DNA of 11,311 nucleotides from Fibrobacteria bacterium (GCA_043732185.1 JAYTHY010000076.1:1-11311), one strand, 5' to 3'; shown: positions 1-11,311, counted from the stretch's first letter. Numbers and translations: made by a program. The notes: generated by a model not told the origin, from the sequence alone.

Positions 1-99
1 TTTAAACGTTGGCGTAAAGGTTCGACGGTCTGATTTCTTGCTTTTTCTCATTCTCATAATATACCTGTTCGTTGTGTCCGAAAAAGCAGGTACACGTCA

Positions 100-2106
100 T
101 TACCGGGTAAGATTGAGAATCCTTGTGCACCGTTTACCCTCAGCATTTAATTCAAATAAATAGGGGCCGGGTAAAAGTTTGTCCAAGGAGTAAAAACCTT
201 CCTGGCCCGAAATCATCACCTTGCCTGTGACACTTGTCCGGCCCGAAAGTGTGTAGATCTTTGCGGAAACACTCCTGCCCTGCGAAGCATAAGGGAGCGA
301 GAAGAAAAGACCATCGCGAACTATGCGAAGAGAGAAATCAAAGGGTCCGGGAACACTATTGGTGCTGATGGTCACGACGTTTTGAGGAGAAGTGAGTATC
401 GCTCCACCTTCTCCCACCGTCATAAACTGGCCGCTTCTGAACATAATGAAATTGAGATTGTAACCTGTGCCTGAAGAATTCCCTACCCATGTGACACCAT
501 CGAGGGAAGACTGAATTACGCCAGCATCTCCCACGAGAGCACCGCTGCGGCTGTTTCCCGCAGCAACCAACTGGTTACCACTCCAGGCTATGGAGTTCAA
601 GGTGTTGATTTTCGAAGATCGGCTGGTCCAGGTGATGCCGTCGGGCGAAGTCAATATCACGTCTCCCACGGCCACAAGCTGGCTTCCGGTCCAGATGACA
701 GAATAAAGCGAATAAACTGTACCCGATATTTGGCTGGTCCAGTTCACACCGTCCGGCGAAGTGGCAGTGTACCCGTAATTGCCGACCGCCACGAACTGAC
801 TGCCGGTCCAAGCCACGGAATTACCCACTGCCGAAGACCTGCCCGTCCATGTGATTCCATCCGGAGAAGTTAGGCCCCCGGCATTTCCCACGGCCATAAA
901 TTGATTGCCGGTCCAAATTACGGAGAAAAGGGCAGTTGTTGGCGTCGTCGTCCGGTTGGTCCATGTGATGCCATCGGCTGAAGTAAGAACGGTGTTGTTC
1001 GCCCCCACCATTACAATTAGGGAGCCGTTAGACGTGACCGAGTAAAGAGGATTGGTGGTGCCCGAAGTTCGAGTGGTCCAGACAATACCGTCGGGGGAGG
1101 TCATTGTTCTGCCCGAATCGCCCACGGCCACAAACACGCTGCCAGTTCGTGTTACTCCGTGAAGCTGGGTTGTAAATCCAGAACTGCGCAAAGTCCAAGC
1201 GACTCCGTCTGGCGAAGTTGCAATAACGCAATAGCTGGAAACGGAAAAATCCGACCCCGCGCCCACGGCCACAAGCTGGCTACCGGTCCACGCTAGGCCG
1301 CTGAGTCGCATCGTGGTACCCGATGCCCTGGCAGTCCACGTCATCCCGTCCGGAGAAGTCAAAACTGTTCCCTGGGACCCCGTCGCGACCAGTTGACTTC
1401 CGGTCCAACGCACAGAGTAAAAAGTGGAAGAAGCTGCTCCCGAATTTTGGGCGGTCCAAGTGATGCCGTCTGGAGAGGTTAAGATAGTCCCGAGGGACCC
1501 CACCATCACATATTGACTACCGGTAAAGGTCGAGGAATAAAGCGGGTAGGTGGTTCCCGAAGTCCTCGGGCTCCAGGTAATGCCGTCCATTGAAGTTAAA
1601 ATGATACCTGCACTTCCTGCGGCTATAATTTGATTATTGGAAAAACTCACTGAGTAAAGGGCGGAGGTGATACCTGAGTTTTGGCTGGTCCAAACAATCC
1701 CGTCCGGAGAGGTCAGTATGCGGCCGGAATCGCCGACGGTCACGAATCGGGTGCCGGTCCAGATGACGGAATAGAGGATGCTTGTCAGGCCCGAAGCTCT
1801 GCTTGTCCAGGTTATTCCGTCTGGTGAAGTAAGAAGGGTACCGTTTCTCCCTACCGCCGCAAATTGGCTACCGGTCCAGACCACCGAGATAAGCCTGGAG
1901 GCGGTTCCCGAAGTTCTTTTCCTCCAGAGAATACCGTCGGGTGAAGTCAATACAGTGCCGGCATCGCCCACGGCCATGAGTTGACTGCCGTCCCAAATGA
2001 CGGAAGAAAGCCGGTTGCCATGTGGCATAGGATTGCGCCAAGTCCAATCGGTTTGAGCGAAGGGGTTTACGAAGGCAGCGAAAAATACAATAAAAAGAAG
2101 TGGCAT
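100..2106 (-). CDS. Secreted Asp-box/BNR-repeat beta-propeller protein (probably two 7-bladed propellers) with T9SS type-A-like C-terminal sorting domain
   Basis: Fourteen ~39-aa repeats of consensus LYSVxWTGSQFVAVGxxGTILTSPDGITWTxRxSG. N-terminal signal peptide MPLLFIVFFAAFVNPFA-Q. C-terminal tail AKIYTLSGR...LLPGPYLFELNAEGKRCTRILNLTR resembles Por/T9SS CTDs. ATG at 2106 is preceded by GGAAGGAAC and is preferred over the GTG at 2118. Confidence 0.9.
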   Translation of the reverse strand: MPLLFIVFFAAFVNPFAQTDWTWRNPMPHGNRLSSVIWDGSQLMAVGDAGTVLTSPDGILWRKRTSGTASRLISVVWTGSQFAAVGRNGTLLTSPDGITWTSRASGLTSILYSVIWTGTRFVTVGDSGRILTSPDGIVWTSQNSGITSALYSVSFSNNQIIAAGSAGIILTSMDGITWSPRTSGTTYPLYSSTFTGSQYVMVGSLGTILTSPDGITWTAQNSGAASSTFYSVRWTGSQLVATGSQGTVLTSPDGMTWTARASGTTMRLSGLAWTGSQLVAVGAGSDFSVSSYCVIATSPDGVAWTLRSSGFTTQLHGVTRTGSVFVAVGDSGRTMTSPDGIVWTTRTSGTTNPLYSVTSNGSLIVMVGANNTVLTSADGITWTNRTTTPTTALFSVIWTGNQFMAVGNAGGLTSPDGITWTGRSSAVGNSVAWTGSQFVAVGNYGYTATSPDGVNWTSQISGTVYSLYSVIWTGSQLVAVGDVILTSPDGITWTSRSSKINTLNSIAWSGNQLVAAGNSRSGALVGDAGVIQSSLDGVTWVGNSSGTGYNLNFIMFRSGQFMTVGEGGAILTSPQNVVTISTNSVPGPFDFSLRIVRDGLFFSLPYASQGRSVSAKIYTLSGRTSVTGKVMISGQEGFYSLDKLLPGPYLFELNAEGKRCTRILNLTR

Positions 2107-2121
2107 GTTCCTTCCCACTTT

Positions 2122-2649
2122 CTACTTCGAACTACGTTTCGAAACCGGAGTGATACATTTCTGGTAGGTTTTCCAATCCCTTCCTCTCGGGTAGACCCCA
2201 ACAACTTCGTCTAAGTAGAGGGTTGTTTCTGAATCAGGAAAACATATTTGATTGCCGATAAGCGAAATGGCCTTCCAAGGCGCGTACTTAATTCCTTGAG
2301 GCAATTTGGTAAAATGGTTTGTATTGATGTCAAGAACGTTAATAATTCTAAAACCACGGATAGAAGATGGAAAAACAAAATTAGAGTCATTAAGGCCCAA
2401 ACCATCAAGATCAAGATTACCAGAGAGATAGCTTGCATCTTTCTGGTCACGTACCGCAAAAGCATGGCCGGCATTTTTGGCAGAATCAAGCACGGGGTTT
2501 GCGTTTATAATTGCGTCGACGATCCTTAAATCAGATTCAACATTTTTTTGATACGAATCGTCAAAGAAACTAAACCCGCAGCCGCAGAGCAGCATTGAGG
2601 CGAAAACCACAGCGTTTTTAAGGACTTGCGCCTTCACAATCGAATCCAT
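2122..2649 (-). CDS. Leucine-rich-repeat lipoprotein
   Basis: Hydrophobic stretch and lipobox-like MLLCG|C. About three LRR-like units (LDLDGLGLND..FPSSI; LDINTNHFTKLPQGI; ISLIGNQIC) followed by a C...W..YQKC cap. ATG at 2649 has GGAGG upstream. Overlaps the end of the upstream gene by 32 nt. Confidence 0.75.
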   Translation of the reverse strand: MDSIVKAQVLKNAVVFASMLLCGCGFSFFDDSYQKNVESDLRIVDAIINANPVLDSAKNAGHAFAVRDQKDASYLSGNLDLDGLGLNDSNFVFPSSIRGFRIINVLDINTNHFTKLPQGIKYAPWKAISLIGNQICFPDSETTLYLDEVVGVYPRGRDWKTYQKCITPVSKRSSK

Positions 2650-5131
2650 TCGCCCTCCGATAATATTCCCGGCCAAGGACATTCAAATCGAAACAGAAGG
2701 AAGCCCAACCATTGAAGTCAATTTTGGCTTGCGCTTTGAACGCATCAAAGGTCGGGTCCTCAATAAACCTCGTATAAGCCGGCTGGATACCCAATGGGGC
2801 GAATTTCGGGTCCACCAGTAGTGGCTTGTACCATAGCAACAGCACGTTGAAATTCGTATTGGTGCCTAGGTTTTGAGGCGGACTCCCGGCGCCGTCGAGA
2901 ATGTCTATCATGCGGGTCAATGGGATGACGTCTCCGCCGATGGGATCCATCCGTAGTTCCCAATTGATATTTCCTGCCTCGGTGATGGCGACGGGTGCGA
3001 AACGGCCACGATTGGCGTATAAATCGGTGGAAAGCCAAGCTGAAGTGTTTGAAATGCGAGTTATAATATCGTTACGTGTGTACCGCCCTTCGACATCGAA
3101 AGGATAATAGTGGACGGAAATGGCGTCGGGCAGGAGGGGTGTAAATACTCCGTTGCCATTTATGTCCACAGTCCTGTCTAAGTTGCTCAATACCAAGGAA
3201 AAATATTGCCGCGTTGTGTAATTCAGTAGGGTTCCTTGGACCAAATTTTTGGCGTCATCAAGGGAAGAAGTCACGGCATTACTCGTATATAGGGCCAACC
3301 ATGGAGCAAGGACGATAATGGGAGGGAAAAATATGGATCCAAGATATGCCCCGATAAGAAATGTTGCAGCACCAACTCCTACGCCTGCATCTAATATCTT
3401 CTCATCTAAAAGTTCTCCAAAATGGGCTACGGCATCCTGCTTGATGAAGTCTCTGTCGAACAGTGCCCCTATGACGATCTCGGCGTTCGGATCAGCCCTT
3501 TTGATGACCTTGTAATATTCCCTGAACAAGACTGCGTAGTCCTGCGGAGAAATATAGGGGAACATGTTGGGCTCATTCCCAATTTCCCAAACGGTCCGAC
3601 GGGGACGCATGGCCATATTGTCCCGGAGTACGGCAGCTTGGATTTGCTTGGCGTCAGCTGCCGCTAGAGCGGCCGCCTTAGGCTGGAACCAGCGGAACCT
3701 CGGTCTATCGGCGACGCACAAGGAGGGAATACGGCTTTGGCAGATGCGTACTTGCCACCTACGGATGCAAGGAAAGGACACGGAAGTCCAGCAACCTTCG
3801 AATGGAAACAAATACCATCCTATCCTAGCCTTGATAAAACTATCGAGGTCGGACTTAAAGTTTCCTACGCTGTATCCAAAACCATCATGACGGTGATCGA
3901 ATGTGCCCACTTTTCGAACCACAGACACACCGGACACAGGATCGGCAGAAGCTGCTAAAGACGTAACGGTATAAGGCGGATTGGGTGGGGGCGGATCAGT
4001 GTGGTTACCATATATTTCATACCACTTCAGCTGCATTATCTGAACGAATTGGGTGGCACCCTCTCCAATTACGCCATACTCCAATGTGCCGCCTAGTGGA
4101 GGGATTTGAGAAATCAATGAGGACTGTGAAATTGATTTTTTATTCGTAAGAAATGGTCTCGGCAAAGTGCTCCAAGTAGGAGAAATCTGATCGGCGGTTA
4201 TTGTTTTCAGTAAGGAATCAAAATATGCCGCCGAATCCTTGATCACCGGCAGAACCGGAGGCTGTGCCACGACCGCCGTGACAGGAGCCGCAGGCATGTA
4301 CACCCCGCTTCCTCGACCGACGATTACCTTTTTCCCGAACAACCGACCATCTAATTCCACACTATCGCCCAAGATTATGTCGGCTTTTGGGGCCACGAAA
4401 ATTGCGCTAACCCCGGCAAAGGACCCGATGCAAAGTTGGTGATTCTGTTTGCTGTAAATGGTGAGCATCATGTTGCTGTCCCCAGCAATGGGCGTGATTT
4501 CGGCTTCGCGGCCAATGCTGACGTTTTTCTCCACATTTATCTGAATGGGGCCATCCGAAAGGTCTAAAGCTACCGAAGCCAAGCCATCCAACCAAAAGCC
4601 CTGGAAGTTATAAGTTCCGGACCGGAGGGTAAGTATAGACCGAGGTAGAACCCGGAGATACCTGTAAGTGCCAGGTCCTAGGATTTTCGGATGCTTATGG
4701 ACGAACACATCGTGTGTGCCCACGGGGATATCCAAAACCTGTGGTATCGGGCATTCTTCCCAACCAGGCATGTGCTCGATGACATCCGAAGCCACTTTTG
4801 AACCGTGCCCCCGGAATACTTGACCACCCACGGTGACAAGTCCATTCACGAGTGAATTTTTATGGAGCCAAGCATTGGAATCTGCTGTTACGGTGCCCCA
4901 CACCTGCGCCCTTTCTTCGACGACCACATGTTTCGCCGAACCTACGTTGCCACCAACAGCTACAGAGCTTTTCCTAAGTATTGTGGCTTCACGAGAGTAG
5001 ATGATGTATTGGTCGGAGCAATAGGGAAAATTCTGGGGCAATTCACCCTTGGCTTGAAGCCACAATCCAAAAACTATGGCAAGGAAATTCAGGGCAGAGC
5101 GGGAAGAAACCAAGAACATCACCAACCCCAT
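2618..5131 (-). CDS. Secreted multidomain protein: N-terminal beta-solenoid-like region plus C-terminal clan GH-A (GH39/GH5-like) glycoside hydrolase-like domain
   Basis: 837-aa ORF with signal peptide (..ALNFLAIVFGLWLQAKG). N-terminal V/G-rich beta-strand repeats ending in FVAPKADIILG...LDGRLFGKKVIV. Pro-rich linker. Clan GH-A motifs WEIGNEPN (3566-3589), IKRADPNAEIVIGAL, PDAISVHYYP and VAITEAG (ITEAG at 2972-2986). Confidence 0.8.
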   Translation of the reverse strand: MGLVMFLVSSRSALNFLAIVFGLWLQAKGELPQNFPYCSDQYIIYSREATILRKSSVAVGGNVGSAKHVVVEERAQVWGTVTADSNAWLHKNSLVNGLVTVGGQVFRGHGSKVASDVIEHMPGWEECPIPQVLDIPVGTHDVFVHKHPKILGPGTYRYLRVLPRSILTLRSGTYNFQGFWLDGLASVALDLSDGPIQINVEKNVSIGREAEITPIAGDSNMMLTIYSKQNHQLCIGSFAGVSAIFVAPKADIILGDSVELDGRLFGKKVIVGRGSGVYMPAAPVTAVVAQPPVLPVIKDSAAYFDSLLKTITADQISPTWSTLPRPFLTNKKSISQSSLISQIPPLGGTLEYGVIGEGATQFVQIMQLKWYEIYGNHTDPPPPNPPYTVTSLAASADPVSGVSVVRKVGTFDHRHDGFGYSVGNFKSDLDSFIKARIGWYLFPFEGCWTSVSFPCIRRWQVRICQSRIPSLCVADRPRFRWFQPKAAALAAADAKQIQAAVLRDNMAMRPRRTVWEIGNEPNMFPYISPQDYAVLFREYYKVIKRADPNAEIVIGALFDRDFIKQDAVAHFGELLDEKILDAGVGVGAATFLIGAYLGSIFFPPIIVLAPWLALYTSNAVTSSLDDAKNLVQGTLLNYTTRQYFSLVLSNLDRTVDINGNGVFTPLLPDAISVHYYPFDVEGRYTRNDIITRISNTSAWLSTDLYANRGRFAPVAITEAGNINWELRMDPIGGDVIPLTRMIDILDGAGSPPQNLGTNTNFNVLLLWYKPLLVDPKFAPLGIQPAYTRFIEDPTFDAFKAQAKIDFNGWASFCFDLNVLGREYYRRANGFDCEGASP

Positions 5132-5290
5132 TGTTAACTATCACATAATATAGGTGGAATTTCGAGATTCAGCTGCAACAATGGGACACTAAATTTTCGC
5201 AATTTCAAGCCACGATGTCCTATTATCCCTTATTACGCGCATATTTTACGCGTTCTTCCCTGTGCGCCACTTGACTCTAGAACCGGTGTG

Positions 5291-5425
5291 CGGAACAACT
5301 CGGCAAGAATTGCGAAACAGCCGACTTAAGGGATACGAATCGGCTCAAGTTCAGCTTCCACCATTCAACGGCCACCGATACCATCCTGGTCATCACCGAT
5401 AACCGCATTGGGCTTTCGTTGCGGC
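5291..5425 (-). repeat. Possible degenerate shorter attC-like element D
   Basis: Minus strand GCCGCAAC ... GTTGTTCCG. Arms pair only weakly (AATTGCG/CGCATT). Internal AGCCGA/TCGGCT hairpin. Lacks the motif shared by A, B and C. Confidence 0.3.
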
Positions 5426-5625
5426 TAGTGATCCTCAAAACAAGAACCCTTGGCAGCAGGGCGGGGGTTGGGTTCAATTTCTTGGAAAGACGGTAATGGC
5501 ATTTCAAACAAGAACTCATCAACTTGGCATCCTGAGAGAATTAATTTTTCTTTTGCGCGCGTCTTATCCTCACGTAATTCGCGCCGCACACGACGTGCGG
5601 CGATTCGTATTTCCGCACCCCCATT

Positions 5626-5880
5626 GAACACAACGTGTGCCAGGGCGACGTGGATTTTTGGATTAGGGCCGAAACACGAGGACGAGAGCGAAGTGGTGGC
5701 CTGTGGCCGCCCGAAGCGAACGCCCGCAGTGTGCTGTGAAGGCCCGTTGAGAGCGAGTGGCGTTTCGCCGCGAAGCCTCTCAATGGAGCCTGAACAGCCG
5801 GACCAATCCAAAAATCCATGTGGGCGAAGCCCCGGAGCGGGGGTGGAACCCACGCGGAGCGCCCTAGCTGTGTTGTCCGA
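5626..5880 (-). repeat. Long attC-like hairpin element C (255 nt)
   Basis: Minus strand starts TCGGACAAC and ends GTTGTGTTC. Outer arms AGGGCG/CGCCCT and perfect 14-bp arms TGGATTTTTGGATT (5651-5664)/AATCCAAAAATCCA (5805-5818). Shares the internal GAGGAY..GCGRAGTGG..CCCGRAGCG..CCCGCA motif with A and B. Confidence 0.75.
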
Positions 5881-6238
5881 TGTTGCGCCTCTTAATTTCT
5901 TTATGGGGTGGGTCTTCTCTTGGTATTGGTTGGTTGGATTTTTTCTGGGGTAGGGGCCCCAGTCCTAACTTCATAACTTCTTTCATTCTTTCCGGCATGG
6001 CGAAGTGCTTTCATTTTGCCATGCACCGATTGTGCGTGTATTGTCTGGCTTTTTCCTTGTTTTACCTGACTTCCCCATTTTGGATTTATTGGTTTTCTGA
6101 ATTTTTATTTGACTTAAATTCTTAGTTTGGATTGCTTTGGTTTTCTTCTCTTCCCACCCCATAAAAAATTATGAACTGGTAAATTGCCTTCCGGCCCATA
6201 GCCGGGGGGCAAGTATTTAGAGGTGCAATTTCGGACAA
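5634..6238 (-). mobile_element. Putative ORF-less integron-like cassette 2 (605 bp including element C)
   Basis: Begins after G^TTGTCCGA (6239/6238). Its terminal hairpin starts with the exact complement TCGGACAAC (5880-5872). No credible CDS inside. Confidence 0.6.
5946..6024. repeat. Structured ~80-nt motif, copy 1
   Basis: TGGGGTAGGGGCCCCA ... CTTTCATT ... GCATGGCGAAGTG-cttt-CATTTTGCCATGC; 13-bp stem with two G:T pairs on the + strand. Confidence 0.8.
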
Positions 6239-6523
6239 CGTTAGCCACGCCGGAAGTGGCCTGGGAAGGCCGAAGGGAAGAAGCAACGAAATAATTTGCG
6301 CGCTGGGCGAGGATGTGAGCGGAGTGGGGAGTGCCGACCCCGGAGCGAACACCCGCAGCCCGCAATGAAGAAAAGCTGCGGCGCTAACGAAGCCGAACGG
6401 GAAAGACCTCAGAGAAAGTTAGCGCCGCGGCTTATTCTGAATTGCCGCGCAGCCTTCCCAGGCCATTTGCGAAACCGCAATGCGGAGCATGCCCGCGGTT
6501 TCCCGGCTGGCGGTGTTGCATGC
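6231..6523 (-). repeat. Long attC-like hairpin element B (293 nt)
   Basis: Minus strand starts GCATGCAAC and ends GTTGTCCGA. Perfect 14-bp arms 6257-6270/6452-6465, extended by AAG/TTT. Inner 16-bp stem 6373-6388/6418-6433. G:T pairs form on the + strand. Confidence 0.8.
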
Positions 6524-6645
6524 GCCGCAGGCCGGCCAGCGTGTATCGCGCAGGCCGAGTTGTCCCACACACAGGGAGATGATATCGGCTCTTTCTTTCC
6601 GCCCACCCTCTTTTCTTAGCGCACTGGTTTTTCTTTATCACCTTA

Positions 6646-6727
6646 TGGGGAAGGGGCCCCATTCTTCACGTAATTGGAGTAATTACTTTCATTAGGCAAG
6701 GCGAAGTGCCTCAGCATTTTGCCATGC
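6646..6727. repeat. Structured ~80-nt motif, copy 2
   Basis: TGGGGAAGGGGCCCCA ... CTTTCATT ... GCAAGGCGAAGTG-cctcag-CATTTTGCCATGC; same three blocks, order and orientation as copy 1. Confidence 0.8.
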
Positions 6728-6743
6728 GACGTTTGCACTTGCC

Positions 6744-7343
6744 TTATTTTTCCCATGGTCTCTTGCCTTGGCAGTGAAAGTAGTAGAATCCTTGAGACGT
6801 TTCTTTGGCCTCAGGACATAAGTCGAAGGAGATTTTCCTTCGTTTTTTTGGATTTTCCGGAAAGAATATAAGTTCCTTTTCCCATGCATCGTATTTGGCC
6901 AAGTAACTAGTCTTCCATGCCTTTAATTCGCTCTTTTGTAATTCCCGCCTGGGACGCGCGTATTCTTCTTTAGAAAATAGAGCAATTACCAGCGTAGCCC
7001 TCGGAAATTTGTTCATCATACATTCCCATGAAATATTGCGTAACATGGTCTTAAGGCTATCCTCGTTTTCTATTATCAAGGAGTCGTACGCCGAGACAAA
7101 AAGCGTGGCCTTCAACTGTTTTTTATCCTCGTCAAGGCTGATTCCGCTGTAAGGTGGTGGTGGAGATGAATATTTCCTGCGAGCACCCAATCTTTCTGCG
7201 GAGTGAATTTGGCTAATACAGAACGCCAAGCTCACTAGAAGGCAGCTACCCCAGGCGAGTTTCGACGCTGGCCGGAAGGCGTGCGCGAATAGCACGCGGA
7301 ACGCGACGCTTATTTTCTTCCTTTTTTGGAGCCCTTCGAACAC
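6744..7343 (-). CDS. Hypothetical protein, probably exported; start codon uncertain
   Basis: 199-aa ORF with hydrophobic segment LAWGSCLLVSLAFCISQIHSA. As called, it overlaps the end of the 888-aa gene by 34 nt on the same strand. No family recognised. Confidence 0.6.
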   Translation of the reverse strand: MFEGLQKRKKISVAFRVLFAHAFRPASKLAWGSCLLVSLAFCISQIHSAERLGARRKYSSPPPPYSGISLDEDKKQLKATLFVSAYDSLIIENEDSLKTMLRNISWECMMNKFPRATLVIALFSKEEYARPRRELQKSELKAWKTSYLAKYDAWEKELIFFPENPKKRRKISFDLCPEAKETSQGFYYFHCQGKRPWEK

Positions 7344-9976
7344 GGTTCTTTCCCTTCCACGAGGACGGAAACGGCTTCCGACTGAAGATTGTCCACCCGG
7401 ATGCGATAATAGTATACAGCACCAACGTCTACGTTTTCATCCACAAATTTCCTTTCCGGGGTTCTCCCGATTTCCACAAATCCCTGCGTGGAATCCAGGG
7501 TTGACCGCATAACCCGATAATCTCCAGAACCCGTATGACGCCATTTGAGGTGAACTTCAGGTTCTTTGTCCTTAGATTTTTTCTCCTTGGCCTCCAAATG
7601 CATGACCACGGTTTGGATAAGGCTGATGGTGATTTGCAGTGGTTTAGGGGTTTCCACGTTTCCGGCAACGTCAGTTCCGAAAAACTCAATCTGGTAAACC
7701 CCAGCGGCTGATAGCGTGAGAGGACTGGAGGCCGCAACGCCATTGACCAAAAGGGAAAAGGCAGCGACACCCGAAAGCGCATCGACGCTCTGGAAATTGA
7801 TGGTCACGGAGCCATTTTCCGTGCCTGTGCCCGTGTAATCGTGAGAGGAAACAGGCGGAGTGAAATCATTGTGGATGAGGAGGGTATGGACCGGTTCCAC
7901 ATTGCCCGCCTTGTCCGTTGACCAAAATTCCACGGTGTGTTCGCCTTCTTCAGTCAGCGTGATCGCAGTGGTATCCTTGGCGTCACCACCATCCACTTTT
8001 ACGAATGTCTGGGCAACCCCAGAACCGGTGTCGGTAGCGGAAAAGTGGATGACCAACGGATTGATTCGATTCCAGGGTGCTTCCACGAAATCCGAGACCG
8101 TAACAGGTGGGATAACATCGTTCTCGTTGTTTTTATAGTTGACCGCTACCGGGTCGATTTGGCCTTCCACGGTATTCCCATGGATCAACTGGGTAGTTTC
8201 GGTTCCAAAGGCGTCGATCTTGATGATTTCCAGAGTATAGGGGCCGGATCCCGTTCCCACAATTTGGATTTGGAATTCTCCCTGCACCGGCTGGTTGATG
8301 TGGATGTATTTCACGGGGTCAGGATCCGGAGGTACGGGAAAGTCTGGAAGAGTGGTGAAAGAGGCTTCGCCCAAGGTGGCCGTTACATCGGGTATTTCAT
8401 CATAGGATATGCCATCGGCGGGATTCAGTCCCCTCCTTCTTCCCAGTGGGTCCACGATAAAGGCCTGTGCCGGAGAAAAAATCTGGAGGACAAGGCCGTT
8501 GGTTTTAGACTTGTCAGTTGGCGCCATGAACATGGCGTAAGAGAATTTGTTGTCCCAATCGATTTGTTTATTGATATCACCAATTTCACCATTCACCATA
8601 GCAAAATTATTTGCATATCCGACGTCGTTGATAAAGTAGGTTTTGACCCATTTGTTCTCGCGCTTCTTGAAATAGGTTTCGATTCCATTGGCCACCACAA
8701 AGTGGGTATGGTCAAACACCTTCAAAAGCACCGGGATTTTCCGAGCGAGATAATCTTCAATCAGGCTGGCATCGATCTGTGAAGCCTTGAATTCCAACTT
8801 GGTATTGCCGGAAAGACCATTGGTTCCTTTCAGCAGTTCAGGAAGATTGTAGGAAGGGAAGCAGACTTGGGTTCCGGGATCATCGGAACAGGTCCTGAAC
8901 AGATTCTTCTTTTTCACGTACCGGGCCAAAGTCAGGGGCGTGAGGTTTACCAATGCCGTTGAATTTTCCGCCTCTACTTTTGTGGCGCCCTGGGCATGCA
9001 TGATTGATGCCCAAGAAGTCATCCAACAGCCTTTTTGGATAAAGGCATAGCCCGCGACATCGTCCGGATTGATAACGTCATCAAACCAAGGAGCAAAGGT
9101 AGGGCCGGCGGCCTGGCTATACCATGGCCCATTTAAATCAAAGGGTTTTTCCGGGGTGTACGAACCAAAATTGAAATCGGTGGTGATGGCAATCCCGTGC
9201 AGGCGAATGCCGCCATTGACCGTGGCAGTGGTTCCCCCAGCCAAGGGCACAATCGTCTTGAGTCGTGGTACGCTGACCCGGACCTTGTTTACGCGCAGCT
9301 TCAATTCATCGGCGGTGAACCGGATAAATTGCAGATCCATAAACGGCTGCGTGCCGCCACGCAGGGAAAAGGCGCTGACCGGAGGATCGATCAAAGCCCG
9401 CACCGGCACGCTCCCCAACGTGCTGAACCGGAACGAGCGAACATAGTCGAGGATCGAAATCTTGCGGGTCACCTGAACCGGAGCGCCGGAACCAAGGGGA
9501 TCAGAAAGGGTAACATCAATGATAATGGAATCCTTGCCCGACGCGAACTTGGTGGAGTCGTAAAGGTTAAACGCTTCCATAAGAAAAACGATATCGGTCA
9601 TGTGCACGGCAGGGAAGCTCGATGGGAATTGAAACTCAGCGAATGCCAGCGTATCATCCGAGTTGGTCCGCAGGTTGAGGGCGTTCGAGGTGTGGGACTT
9701 CACACGAACAACTTGGATTGAAAGGCTATCTCCCCCGGACCCGCCTTGATGAAGGGTGTCTCCTTCCAGAATCAAAGCCGCGTTGAATTCACTTGGGTAC
9801 TGCGATGAAAAGTCCACGAATGCGGAGCCCCGGGAAGCAGATAATTGCGTGGCGAAGTCGTAGCTTGCGTTTAGGTCCTCATGAAAATTCGGATTGTGCG
9901 GTGTTTCCGGCACTTGGCCAATGGCCAAAGCAAGGGGTAAAAGAAGGCCAAAGCAGAAGACGGGCGGGAATTTCAT
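7310..9976 (-). CDS. Secreted C39-like (papain-fold) cysteine peptidase domain protein with two OmpL47-type Ig-like repeats and a C-terminal fibronectin type III domain
   Basis: Signal peptide MKFPPVFCFGLLLPLALA; GGAG upstream of ATG. Triad-like motifs IQKGCWMTS (9014-9040), HFVVANG (8684-8704) and INDVG (8618-8632). Two DxxPPV...SxTD..SGV...GxHTVEFWSTDxAGNVE-type repeats. FnIII-like VHLKW...YRVMRS...FVDENV..GAVYYYRI. Confidence 0.85.
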   Translation of the reverse strand: MKFPPVFCFGLLLPLALAIGQVPETPHNPNFHEDLNASYDFATQLSASRGSAFVDFSSQYPSEFNAALILEGDTLHQGGSGGDSLSIQVVRVKSHTSNALNLRTNSDDTLAFAEFQFPSSFPAVHMTDIVFLMEAFNLYDSTKFASGKDSIIIDVTLSDPLGSGAPVQVTRKISILDYVRSFRFSTLGSVPVRALIDPPVSAFSLRGGTQPFMDLQFIRFTADELKLRVNKVRVSVPRLKTIVPLAGGTTATVNGGIRLHGIAITTDFNFGSYTPEKPFDLNGPWYSQAAGPTFAPWFDDVINPDDVAGYAFIQKGCWMTSWASIMHAQGATKVEAENSTALVNLTPLTLARYVKKKNLFRTCSDDPGTQVCFPSYNLPELLKGTNGLSGNTKLEFKASQIDASLIEDYLARKIPVLLKVFDHTHFVVANGIETYFKKRENKWVKTYFINDVGYANNFAMVNGEIGDINKQIDWDNKFSYAMFMAPTDKSKTNGLVLQIFSPAQAFIVDPLGRRRGLNPADGISYDEIPDVTATLGEASFTTLPDFPVPPDPDPVKYIHINQPVQGEFQIQIVGTGSGPYTLEIIKIDAFGTETTQLIHGNTVEGQIDPVAVNYKNNENDVIPPVTVSDFVEAPWNRINPLVIHFSATDTGSGVAQTFVKVDGGDAKDTTAITLTEEGEHTVEFWSTDKAGNVEPVHTLLIHNDFTPPVSSHDYTGTGTENGSVTINFQSVDALSGVAAFSLLVNGVAASSPLTLSAAGVYQIEFFGTDVAGNVETPKPLQITISLIQTVVMHLEAKEKKSKDKEPEVHLKWRHTGSGDYRVMRSTLDSTQGFVEIGRTPERKFVDENVDVGAVYYYRIRVDNLQSEAVSVLVEGKEPCSKGSKKGRK

Positions 9977-9991
9977 TTTTCTACTCCGGAT

Positions 9992-10789
9992 TTATGGGTT
10001 TCCAAGGATCTTCAAGGGGGTTTTCTTTGAAATGTATCCACGAATGGGATATTTGCGGCCCCCCTGGGAGGCGAACTGCCCTTTGACTTCACCCCCTCGT
10101 GACGGCGTCAGGATCGCCTCCCATGCCCCTGCGCGGAGCAGAGTGGACGGCAAAATCACTACCAATTCGGAACCCTCGACTGATATATAGTCTGAGCAGC
10201 CTTGCACGGCGGGATGCTTACCCCTCTTGGCTGAAAAAGAGCAAATATCCTTCCCTTGGGATCTTATCCTCCCCTTGAAGGATTGGTCGGAGTCCAACGT
10301 AATCCCCACCTCCAGAGGCTTTCGGAGGGAAATGCCCCACCAGAAATCCGCTCGATACTCGTTTTGTTTCAACGGAGAGGGATAAGGAGGTTCCTTGCCG
10401 ACCTGCACGATGCTGTCGCCATTGAGATCCACAGCAAAAAGCAAGGGATTGTTCTCACGGGTGGAAACGTAAATTTCGTGATCGGGTACGAAGTACTCAA
10501 GCGAATCTTTGACCTCGAATGACGACCTGAGAGTTCGTAAATCCGGGGCATAGGCAGCGTGCTCGTTGAAGTAGAGATCTTCCAGCGTCAGAATGGCGCT
10601 GAATGTCTCATTCAGTTTTGGAGGAAGATATATTTTGGTCGATTCGGAAAAGGCAAGATTCAAAGCCAGAAAAATAAGTAAGGCACTTTTTTGAATTGAG
10701 TCGCGCAATTTGTTTGCTCTTGTTGCGAGTTGAGGCCTAAATTTACGAAGAAATCTGCAAAAAAGCATTGTAAAAATGGTCCTTTCCAC
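9992..10789 (-). CDS. Hypothetical exported protein; start codon uncertain
   Basis: 265-aa ORF with signal-like ALLIFLALNLAFS-E. Stop lies 15 nt before the start of the peptidase gene, consistent with an operon. Confidence 0.65.
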   Translation of the reverse strand: MERTIFTMLFCRFLRKFRPQLATRANKLRDSIQKSALLIFLALNLAFSESTKIYLPPKLNETFSAILTLEDLYFNEHAAYAPDLRTLRSSFEVKDSLEYFVPDHEIYVSTRENNPLLFAVDLNGDSIVQVGKEPPYPSPLKQNEYRADFWWGISLRKPLEVGITLDSDQSFKGRIRSQGKDICSFSAKRGKHPAVQGCSDYISVEGSELVVILPSTLLRAGAWEAILTPSRGGEVKGQFASQGGRKYPIRGYISKKTPLKILGNP

Positions 10790-10932
10790 GCTGAAGGACC
10801 ATAAGAAAATAATTGGCTTGAACCCGAATTCCTCAAAAATTCATCAAGTCGACCTCGGCGTCTTACAAGCTACCGCGACGGGCAGAAAAGCAAACCCCGA
10901 GCCCGTCAGTAAGTTGCCGAGGCAATGGGACC

Positions 10933-10958
10933 GAACGTATTTCGAGAACGTATTTCGA
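10933..10958. repeat. Perfect 13-bp tandem duplication, possible operator
   Basis: GAACGTATTTCGA x2, about 145 nt upstream of the first gene of block 1. Confidence 0.6.
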
Positions 10959-11036
10959 TATTGGTTTTTCCTGATGGAAATTTGAAAAACCTGTTATTGA
11001 AATCCTATCCCTTCACGGCGTAAGCCGCCTTTGCAA

Positions 11037-11070
11037 GGCGCCGCAACTGCGGCGCCAATTTTTCTCTTTT
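11037..11070 (+). terminator. Intrinsic terminator-like hairpin, antisense to the genes
   Basis: GGCGCCGCA-ac-TGCGGCGCC perfect inverted repeat followed by AATTTTTCTCTTTT on the + strand. Confidence 0.4.
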
Positions 11071-11184
11071 CCGTTCTTGATTTTCTTCTCTTTCCAGTGC
11101 GCCTCTTCTTCTTCTTCCATTTTCTTTTCTTCTCTTGGGGGGCAGTTTTTGTAATTCTCTTTCTTCTCTTGTGTGGGGGCAATT

Positions 11185-11311
11185 GCATGCAACGTTGGCC
11201 CAGCCAGAAGTGGCCTGGGAAGGCATGCGCGATTAGTGAGGATGCGCGCGGAGTGGGGAGTACCGACCCCGGAGCGCGCACCCGCAACTAGCAATGAAAA
11301 CAAGCTGAGGT
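11185..11311 (-). repeat. Long attC-like hairpin element A (3' part only; continues beyond the window)
   Basis: Colinear homolog of 6236-6378. Shared + strand blocks CAACGTTRGCC, GAAGTGGCCTGGGAAGGC, GCGGAGTGGGGAGTRCCGACCCCGGAGCG, CACCCGCA and GCAATGAA..AAGCTG. Ends on the minus strand in GTTGCATGC. Confidence 0.8.

Follow-up and report, generated by a model that had tools for sequence, protein, structure and literature searches.

The window and its three elements

The stretch of DNA analyzed here (the window) is the entire contig C76, 11,311 nt long, of a Fibrobacteria bacterium genome of 4.46 Mb in 139 contigs (GCA_043732185.1, referred to as G000). It carries three related hairpin elements, A, B and C, and by sequence comparison it is very probably a piece of a chromosomal integron-type gene-cassette array. 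The putative attC sites of this array are about twice as long as the longest described, and its cassettes are operon-sized. An integron-type array had been proposed in a preliminary description of the window, and the arrays, box matching, reshuffling at GTT and recombinases reported below support that proposal. All long open reading frames (ORFs) of the window are on the minus strand, which is the gene orientation used throughout. No tRNAs were found in the window, and a search of the whole window against Rfam returned 0 matches at E up to 1.

Element A (11185..11311, minus strand) comprises the 3' 127 nt of a long attC-like site truncated by the contig end and is detected with an nhmmer E of 5.4e-37; here and below, the nhmmer profile was built from full copies, with the element spanning ~270-330 columns. 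Its 3' end is AACGTTGCATGC, with the R' GTT at 11193-11191 and a predicted crossover between 11193 and 11192. Element B (6231..6523, minus strand; E 5.8e-96) is a complete site of 293 nt whose R'' box is GCATGCAAC (6523-6515) and whose R' box is GTTGTCCGA (6239-6231). Element C (5626..5880, minus strand; E 6.9e-52) is a complete site of 255 nt with a diverged body subtype, bounded by R'' TCGGACAAC (5880-5872) and R' GTTGTGTTC (5634-5626). Direct reading confirmed the three related hairpin elements at the coordinates first assigned to them, A and B being 82% identical over 85 and 49 nt; as whole sites only B and C stand, the contig ending inside A. Internal stems are formed by 6251-6270 with 6452-6471 (20 nt, 90%) and by 5648-5664 with 5805-5821 (17 nt, 94%).

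The boxes match between successive elements. On the plus strand, positions 11185-11193 read GCATGCAAC (on the minus strand, GTTGCATGC) and positions 6515-6523 read GTTGCATGC; likewise, positions 6231-6239 read TCGGACAAC and positions 5872-5880 read GTTGTCCGA. Both 9/9 junction matches of the preliminary description, from the end of A to the start of B and from the end of B to the start of C, are therefore real, and the second is longer than the 9 nt originally given: the B-to-C arms 5872-5896 and 6215-6239 are 84% complementary over 25 nt, and a second pair, 5897-5912 with 6153-6168, follows over 16 nt at 94%. The two boxes of B itself (GCATGCAAC...GTTGTCCGA) are complementary at AAC/GTT plus one base only, again as first described.

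A cassette would begin with the TT of a GTT and close with the G of the following GTT, with its own site at its 3' end. Delimited in this way between the GTT of A and that of B, cassette 1 (6239..11192, minus strand) measures 4954 nt including its own site B and starts with GTTGCATGC, complementary to the B 5' box GCATGCAAC. Cassette 2 (5634..6238, minus strand) measures 605 nt including its own site C. Cassette 3 (1..5633, minus strand) is incomplete and runs past the contig end; its start, GTTGTGTTCAATGG, is found again behind other element bodies, on contig C113 of G000 and in several relatives.

The element family

In G000, nhmmer detected 11 copies with E below 1e-6 on 6 contigs, namely C35 (3), C10 (2), C76 (3), C113, C100 and C107, after four rows with E above 1 were dropped as noise; reading of the sequence revealed a twelfth copy beginning at the extreme end of C113. 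Five of the six element contigs, each 5.6-11.3 kb in length, have at least one end within an element, and the G000 assembly is interrupted at every repeat. The remaining one, of 62.9 kb, begins with only the 3' half of a long element (G000:C107:198-302, E 4.3e-07), which terminates in AAAACGTT followed by CGGCTG; it may represent the distal array end beside ordinary chromosome.

G000 was compared with 40 related genomes, 41 genomes thus being counted with G000 itself; counts of long-element matches, Xl homologues (see below) and IntI include genome G011, on which no individual claim depends. BLAST detected long-element matches in 20 of the 40 relatives, and one contig, G009:C85, carries 10 co-oriented copies across 20.5 kb. 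Further copies are thus not scattered without matched boxes; they form co-oriented arrays with neighbour-matched boxes. Among 26 full elements from 8 genomes, length ranges from 250 to 295 nt (median 269.5), and in the alignment none of the 26 departs from A5, A6 and C7 in the 5' box. The GTT triplet is present in 24 of the 26, the remaining two having GCT and GAA. These two elements (G009:C85 element 9, L080:5177-5437, and G013:C18 element 3, L087:8823-9086) are otherwise intact, and elements with GCT or GAA for GTT may be inactivated sites that lock neighbouring cassettes together. Over 44 copies the core is GTT followed by A or G, and several copies are canonical GTTRRRY (GTTAGGC, GTTAAGC, GTTGGGC), so that the non-canonical GTTG(Y) core class suggested initially does not hold up as a distinct class.

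When aligned, the G000 copies all end in (A)ACGTT, and their downstream flanks fall into discrete classes: GCATGCAATTGCCCCCACACA behind four elements, ARGCRAAATGGGGCTCG behind two, GTGTTCAATGGKGGTGCG behind two and GTCCGAAATTGCACC behind B. Body types and 3' flank classes combine freely, similarity stopping at ACGTT; the C-type body, for example, is followed by the first flank class (GCATGCAATTGCCCCCACACA) in C35 and by the third (GTGTTCAATGGKGGTGCG) in C76. Long-element arrays also include ordinary attC-type sites that point the same way, in G009:C85 (E 9.5e-11), G013:C18, G016:C4 and at the end of G000 contig C35, where the only, partial, G000 copy of the CCGTATAAC-type ordinary attC is located. 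Cassettes in G000 vary in size between 0.6 kb and more than 7.7 kb, with 0-4 genes each, which may point either way; the operon-sized cargo of the preliminary description is thereby borne out, with cassettes of 3-4 genes and of up to more than 7.7 kb.

Neighbour matching of the boxes

To quantify box matching, the AAC and GTT columns were placed in 44 profile matches from 8 genomes, and the six variable bases after GTT were scored against the reverse complement of the six before the next AAC. Of 20 neighbour pairs, 10 scored 6/6, 3 scored 5/6, 3 scored 4/6, 1 scored 3/6, 2 scored 2/6 and 1 scored 0/6; the agreement between the end of each element and the start of the next, put forward earlier as a check, was thus found at 6/6 in half of the pairs, against 33 of 1114 non-neighbour controls (3.0%; mean 2.6). 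The 0/6 pair is the B-to-C pair of the window, where the profile misplaced the C 5' column; by eye it scores 6/6, which brings the total to 11. One 2/6 pair (G016:C4) does not consist of true neighbours, because two ordinary attC sites lie between its elements, and the other 2/6 pair contains a one-base insertion. The own two boxes of one element reached 6/6 in 3 of 26 cases, with a mean of 2.9 of 6, no better than the controls.

Eight different hexamer classes obey this neighbour rule. Among the complete cassettes of G000, five of six match at 6/6 and one, with a one-base insertion, at 4/6. GCATGC is the commonest box class of this genome, being present in four 3' flanks and four 5' flanks, and the A-to-B match taken alone is for that reason weaker evidence. 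The complementarity often runs for ~20 nt, several pairs scoring 14-18 matches over 21 positions. A further subclass has a 5' arm broken by a segment of ~45 nt, after which complementarity resumes in a second block; cassette 1 belongs to this subclass, with TGTGTGGGGGCAA at 11170-11182 facing TTGTCCCACACACA near 6560-6573.

A conserved branched fold

RNAalifold applied to the 26 full copies revealed a conserved fold of 60 pairs in 10 helices, 49 of the 60 pairs being accompanied by compensatory changes. Paired cells amount to 94.0%, compared with 73.3% in shuffles and 33-47% when partners were slid, and none of 500 shuffles reached the observed value on any of five measures. In the predicted fold the R box is adjoined by an L stem; the other parts are a side hairpin, a long stem and a three-way junction bearing two hairpins. 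The L box is paired in helix 1 (columns 16-21 with 312-317), where 5 of 6 pairs show compensatory changes, and it is separated from the R box by an unpaired spacer of 2-3 nt on the 5' side and 4 nt on the 3' side. The R box itself reads NNNNAAC / GTTNNNN and is followed by a small asymmetric internal loop and a covarying L stem of 9-11 bp. In addition, a pyrimidine-rich segment of ~26 extra nt (alignment A1 columns 268-294) lies between the three-way junction and the long stem in B, in G009:C85 elements 1 and 10 and in G013:C18 element 1.

Reshuffling of cassettes at GTT

Over 5.27 kb that include cassette 1, B and a portion of cassette 2, contig C145 of the near-identical strain G002 is 99% identical to the window; ahead of cassette 1 it has a different element body type. 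The breakpoint between the two genomes is sharp: the last difference is located two bases before CAACGTT, from which point 118 of 118 columns are identical, while upstream identity is ~72%. The window is also present in public sequencing runs as assembled Logan contigs. In run X5, a sediment metagenome from another study than the best-matching runs, a 789-nt contig corresponds to window positions 5632-6240, that is, cassette 2 with C, at 8 differences; beyond C's GTT it continues for 180 nt unlike cassette 3, and, by reading, the final 30 letters correspond, when reverse-complemented, to the GTTAGGCGAAATGGGGCTCGAAGTGTGGCCG start class of G002:C7. In run X2, a variant of cassette 2 (16 differences over 463 nt) stands behind 100 nt resembling the C113-type body, not B. 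Reordering among relatives with breaks at GTT, which the preliminary description had named as a check, is thus seen both between G000 and G002 and in metagenome contigs. Read depth in X4 and X5 (none or almost none over window positions 1-5292, with cassette 1 covered) was left unused, being a hole without a bridging contig.

IntI and a second, IntI-like recombinase

A candidate recombinase, looked for from the outset, is present in the genome: contig C132 of G000 encodes a true IntI, which scores 375.5 bits with TIGR02249 (cut-off 265; 0 of 14 control genomes exceed it) and contains the IntI-specific insertion. IntI above the cut-off was found in 21 of the 41 genomes and in 16 of the 21 genomes with long-element matches. 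In the closest relative, contig G002:C7 reads outward from intI as attI (GGTTAATAATATT / GTTAGAC), a one-gene cassette, a long element, two ~150-nt sites and another long element, all array elements diverging from intI. In G009:C53 and G013:C13, attI (GGGTTAATAATATT / GTTATACGG) lies upstream of intI together with ordinary-looking attC sites of ~150 nt (CCGTATAAC...GTTATACGG) that have an extra base in L''. In G006:C17 and G008:C262, too, IntI has long-element matches upstream of it. Because IntI-attI arrays mix both site types, the long elements appear to serve as attC sites in classical integron arrays. A search for the GATCG motif as an attI marker was unproductive.

The expected placement of IntI and attI at the array end is therefore found in G002:C7, G006:C17 and G008:C262, whereas in G000 the IntI is present on a contig that ends in a repeat. 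The left end of C132 is a repeat common to at least nine other contig ends and also occurs once inside C89. This multi-copy repeat (G000:C132:1-97, ...CACTCGATCGCCCGAAGAGCC) abuts the attI half-site AATATTATTAACC at the position of the relatives' crossover GTT; it is apparently an insertion-sequence end, and the IntI platform of G000 may have been cut off from its array. Typical IntI proteins are ~320-340 aa long and have no N-terminal extension of the kind seen in this clade, where IntI (G000:C132:367-900, G009:C53, G013:C13, G002:C7) measures 430-505 aa with a conserved N-terminal extension of ~100-175 aa.

A plausible second, insertion-less integrase heads long-element arrays in the same clade, on at least 7 contigs, as judged from its gene neighbourhoods and its sequence. 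We use the name Xl for this IntI-like tyrosine recombinase without the IntI insertion. Xl scores 200-215 bits with TIGR02249 in two stretches, under the cut-off of 265, and 160-193 bits with XerC/XerD (cut-offs 335 and 330). Alignment with four IntI of the clade shows 31 plus 10 columns missing from Xl, while the catalytic residues (R, K, HxxR, H, Y) and the SPLD motif at the C-terminus are retained. Among solved structures VchIntIA/IntI4 (2a3v) is closest, at 135.5 bits against 118.8 for an archaeal XerC-like protein, and Xl shares with VchIntIA the SPLD motif and the catalytic residues but not the insertion, having 23 residues where VchIntIA has 65 (chain residues 180-244).

With a threshold of E 1e-40, Xl homologues were detected at 25 places, spread over 18 of the 41 genomes. 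Contig coordinates put a long-element match within 6 kb of 8 of these places; at 7 of the 8 the elements lie downstream in the same orientation, the arrangement at G016:C9 being divergent, and at least nine further places have a contig end 0.1-1.6 kb downstream. Xl immediately precedes the 10-element array of G009:C85. An attI-like AG/TT site lies 6-129 nt past the Xl stop codon or, in G016:C9, ~55 nt before the divergent start. When the 5' flank of the first long element was reverse-complemented and aligned with gaps, its best match began at the GTT of this site in 7 of 7 Xl contigs examined, the match taking in the 20-30 nt behind the site, and in 5 of the 7 it scores above all 300 shuffles. 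An ungapped scan had recovered 3 of 7 only, because of a 1-nt length difference. In G000, Xl is on contig C11, 72 nt from the contig end. There, a stretch of 97-98 nt (G000:C11:1-99) that takes in the last Xl codons and DNA beyond recurs with 100% identity at the ends of C33 and C105, either as a repeat or as an assembly-graph branch, at the place where the attI-like site is expected.

Among 79 loci of distant Xl homologues from other phyla (at most 47% identity), 0 long-element matches and 1 weak ordinary-attC match were obtained, and a self-repeat screen flagged several of these loci. One locus, L107 of a Cytophagales member (10001-12900), has a 37%-identical Xl homologue ending in SPLD and then ~260-nt repeats starting CGTT/GGGTGA, similar to cassette starts of the present arrays, and it may be an analogous system in Bacteroidota.

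Proposed mode of cassette exchange

In the scheme we propose, a tyrosine recombinase of the integron-integrase lineage would cut at G^TT, leaving at the start of each cassette the 3' half of that cassette's own R box, which is why the end of site n would match the start of site n+1. From the outside in, a site would consist of the R box, an asymmetric internal loop, the L stem and a branched core. Because the complementarity extends ~20 nt past the crossover, circularization on excision would restore a hairpin whose stem contains the crossover. The folding of a single strand, the strand used and the enzyme acting on the sites of the window are features that we infer from this model.

Several observations weigh against the array reading or against parts of the scheme. 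The neighbour rule is broken by two of the four cassettes beside IntI in G002:C7, and element 8 to element 9 of G009:C85 scores only 3/6. Extrahelical bases of canonical attC sites direct strand choice, and no position of the L stem has a conserved one among the 26 elements; the commonest type has a perfect 10-bp L stem (GCCCAGCCAG / CTGGCTGGGC), and element B has one extra L base, on the opposite arm from the extra base of the clade's ~150-nt sites. With DNA parameters, the bottom strand is the more stable one in only 17 of the 26 elements (mean folding energy -69.3 kcal/mol for the bottom and -67.1 kcal/mol for the top strand), and a hand tally of pair types, on a structure predicted for the top strand, gave 44 G-U cells on that strand against 35 A-C cells, which does not separate the strands. 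Of the bottom-strand folding suggested at first, the stability in 17 of 26 elements and a bottom-strand purine fraction of 0.56 thus leave a weak lean.

Circle junctions (6239 joined to 11192 and 5634 joined to 6238) were absent among the 4 joints listed, which derive from assembled contigs only. Two skip joints, with sides of 23 and 27 letters, are unreliable; the joint of 11311 to 6413 is, by reading, a full-length A-type element resembling B, and a joint of 6734 to 6459 was also listed. Finally, neither the C132 nor the C11 integrase of G000 could be linked to the window by contig-end overlaps, because both contigs end in repeats common to other contigs.

Which enzyme moves the cassettes

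It is possible, though somewhat less likely than not, that the long elements are dedicated substrates of Xl and the ~150-nt sites those of IntI, that mixed arrays arose by cross-reaction or fusion, and that the window belongs to an Xl platform. The AG/TT site near Xl, with its match to the first long element's 5' flank in 7 of 7 contigs, argues for such a division, as does array composition, the Xl-headed arrays examined containing ~21 long and 3-4 ordinary sites and the IntI-headed ones 2 long and 6 ordinary. Two genomes point the same way: in G016 (50 contigs, 99% complete) there are two Xl arrays while no IntI passes the cut-off, and G023, a single contig that is 99% complete, encodes two IntI but neither Xl nor, as far as BLAST shows, any long element. 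Extrahelical bases, not conserved in the long sites, are what is bound by the IntI helix that is missing in Xl. Other arrays fit this division poorly. Long elements stand first or early beside IntI-attI in G002:C7, G006:C17 and G008:C262; five genomes (G005, G011, G012, G013, G034) have long-element matches and no Xl at E 1e-40; the G013:C18 array abuts dnaE at its 5' end, without a recombinase; and in G008:C101 and G002:C243 Xl is followed by an ordinary attC piece in opposite orientation. Co-occurrence with long elements is about equal for the two enzymes, at 16 of 21 genomes each, these genomes being related and thus not independent. Stated more broadly, and with no more than guarded confidence, the clade could hold two coexisting integron systems that exchange cassettes, one built on IntI and attI and the other an insertion-less Xl platform that would use branched hairpins of 250-295 nt lacking extrahelical bases, rely on core shape, such as that of the asymmetric side hairpin, for strand choice and capture operon-sized cassettes.

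Alternatively, canonical IntI alone would move every cassette, and Xl would be a neighbour or a cargo-like gene at array borders. The presence of IntI in most genomes with long-element matches, the long elements on IntI-attI platforms and R boxes near canonical GTTRRRY are all compatible with a single enzyme. We nevertheless consider this rather unlikely, given that an attI-like site within ~130 nt of Xl occurs in two gene orientations and matches the site of the first cassette, that the G016 arrays exist without IntI, that Xl keeps its catalytic residues, and that its distribution over 18 of 41 genomes makes it no universal housekeeping gene.

An ordinary family of intergenic repeats (resembling repetitive extragenic palindromes or miniature inverted-repeat transposable elements, or a terminator or small-RNA module) spread by duplication, with junction matches that are merely copied flanks, would account for elements that are multi-copy, structured and intergenic, and the recurrence of the GCATGC class with ~60-100 nt of conserved flank on both sides could suggest duplicated blocks, a role as RNA also being conceivable, but this is very improbable in view of a neighbour rule that holds for eight box classes, of bodies and flanks that recombine freely with breaks exactly at ACGTT, of strictly co-oriented arrays that start at attI or attI-like sites by tyrosine recombinases and are shared with ordinary attC sites, and of the lack of any Rfam match at E up to 1.

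Cargo of the cassettes

The proteins encoded in the window are exported or surface-like, and their family matches are weak. Cassette 1 contains, all on the minus strand, a gene for a 265-aa protein with no family match (9992..10789), a gene for an 888-aa protein with a signal-peptide-like N-terminus and a Big_13 Ig-like domain at 27.7 bits (cut-off 27; 7310..9976), and a gene for a 199-aa protein with no family match (6744..7343). Cassette 3 has four ORFs on the same strand: a doubtful one of 81 aa (5277-5522), one of 837 aa with a weak DUF7305 match (2618-5131), one of 186 aa (2122-2682) and one of 672 aa (100-2118), whose product is exported, contains twelve 39-aa repeats (TSPDGITWT...), appears propeller-like and weakly matches DUF6242.

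The gene strand of cassette 2 has no ORF of 60 aa or more. The cassette consists mainly of a conserved pre-site region and little beyond it, and is apparently an empty cassette. In several cassettes a conserved hairpin (GCATGGCRAA...TTCGCCATGC) is located ~135-190 nt ahead of the attC-like site, at 6012-6032 and 6715-6735 in the window and at about 372-400 and 8285-8315 in G000:C113; near it lies a GGGGCCCC palindrome, at window positions 5943-5974 and 6643-6674.

Elsewhere in G000, a single cassette (C100:333-9379) encodes an SNF2/DrmD-like helicase cut by the contig end, a type IIG restriction-methylase (1642 aa, 827 bits in PADLOC) and an OLD/AriA-like ATPase, a trio that looks defence-like. 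The cargo of C35 includes a sigma-54 response regulator and a histidine kinase in reverse orientation, and that of C10 and C113 comprises RCC1-repeat and other secreted proteins. In the relative G016, cassettes of contig C9 encode a cytosine methylase, an NsnA/GmrSD-like protein and a HEPN protein.

Relation to known systems

The arrays share much with sedentary chromosomal integrons such as that of Vibrio cholerae, with its Vibrio cholerae repeat (VCR) attC sites: co-oriented cassettes, each ending in an AAC...GTT hairpin; sites that are homogeneous within a lineage; R' of one site matching R'' of the next; IntI and attI at one end; and cargo that is of unknown, surface or defence type. They differ in the length of the sites (250-295 nt, with a conserved branched core of ~225-250 nt), in having no conserved extrahelical bases and complementarity ~20 nt beyond the crossover, in cassettes of more than 7.7 kb with 3-4 genes, and in that an insertion-less recombinase heads arrays too. 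An attC site measures ~55-141 nt, a range that all 26 full elements exceed.

As in the chromosomal integrons of Treponema, one array mixes attC size classes. The Treponema intI shares the orientation of its cassettes, as Xl does; the integrase there differs in being a true IntI. The 'long' Treponema attC sites measure 115-132 bp, and those of T. succinifaciens 63, 68 and 132 bp (PMC3607928). The variable terminal structure of attC is given as 20-100 nt by Cury et al. (2016; PMC4889954). The 'large attC-cassette' of Methylococcus refers, where the term appears in its source, to nine sites and not to long sites (PMC8527097). In the full-text literature searched (main texts, with most subscription journals outside it), neither such sites nor integrons in this phylum are described.

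The DUF1874 motif is an Rfam family, and the window matches none. The part of Weinberg et al. that describes this motif presents a multistem structure in consecutive intergenic regions, possibly an unusual attC more complex than a hairpin (2017; PMC5737381); within that description, in a further difference from the present arrays, an integrase is not seen and a crossover signature is not reported.

As for the recombinases, XerCD uses the folded single-stranded attP of the CTX phage. This resembles the proposed role of Xl in that an insertion-less Xer-type recombinase acts on a folded single-strand hairpin, and differs from it in that a single phage integration site at dif is involved, not a cassette array. 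According to the subgroup description in Smyshlyaev et al. (2021; PMC8138268), the IntI insertion is not fully conserved in an 'integron-like' subgroup, and gain of the I2 helix is named, in the relevant portion of another study, as the step that shifted IntI from double-strand to single-strand recombination (PMC7790495). An insertion-less IntI relative located by its own attI-like site would make the question of that shift directly testable.

The basic attC design (R box, spacer, L box and AAC/GTT crossover) thus appears to tolerate a branched core of ~230 nt and a stem outside the crossover. Integron detection relies on attC models for sites of ~60-140 nt and on an IntI-specific domain profile. 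The array described here breaks the assumption on attC size, and many related arrays break the assumption on the IntI profile; standard detection would probably miss such arrays, reporting them as nothing or as stray attC clusters, as the preliminary description had also expected of standard attC models. If the two-system reading is true, integron-type capture needs no IntI insertion and would be far wider than current detectors see.

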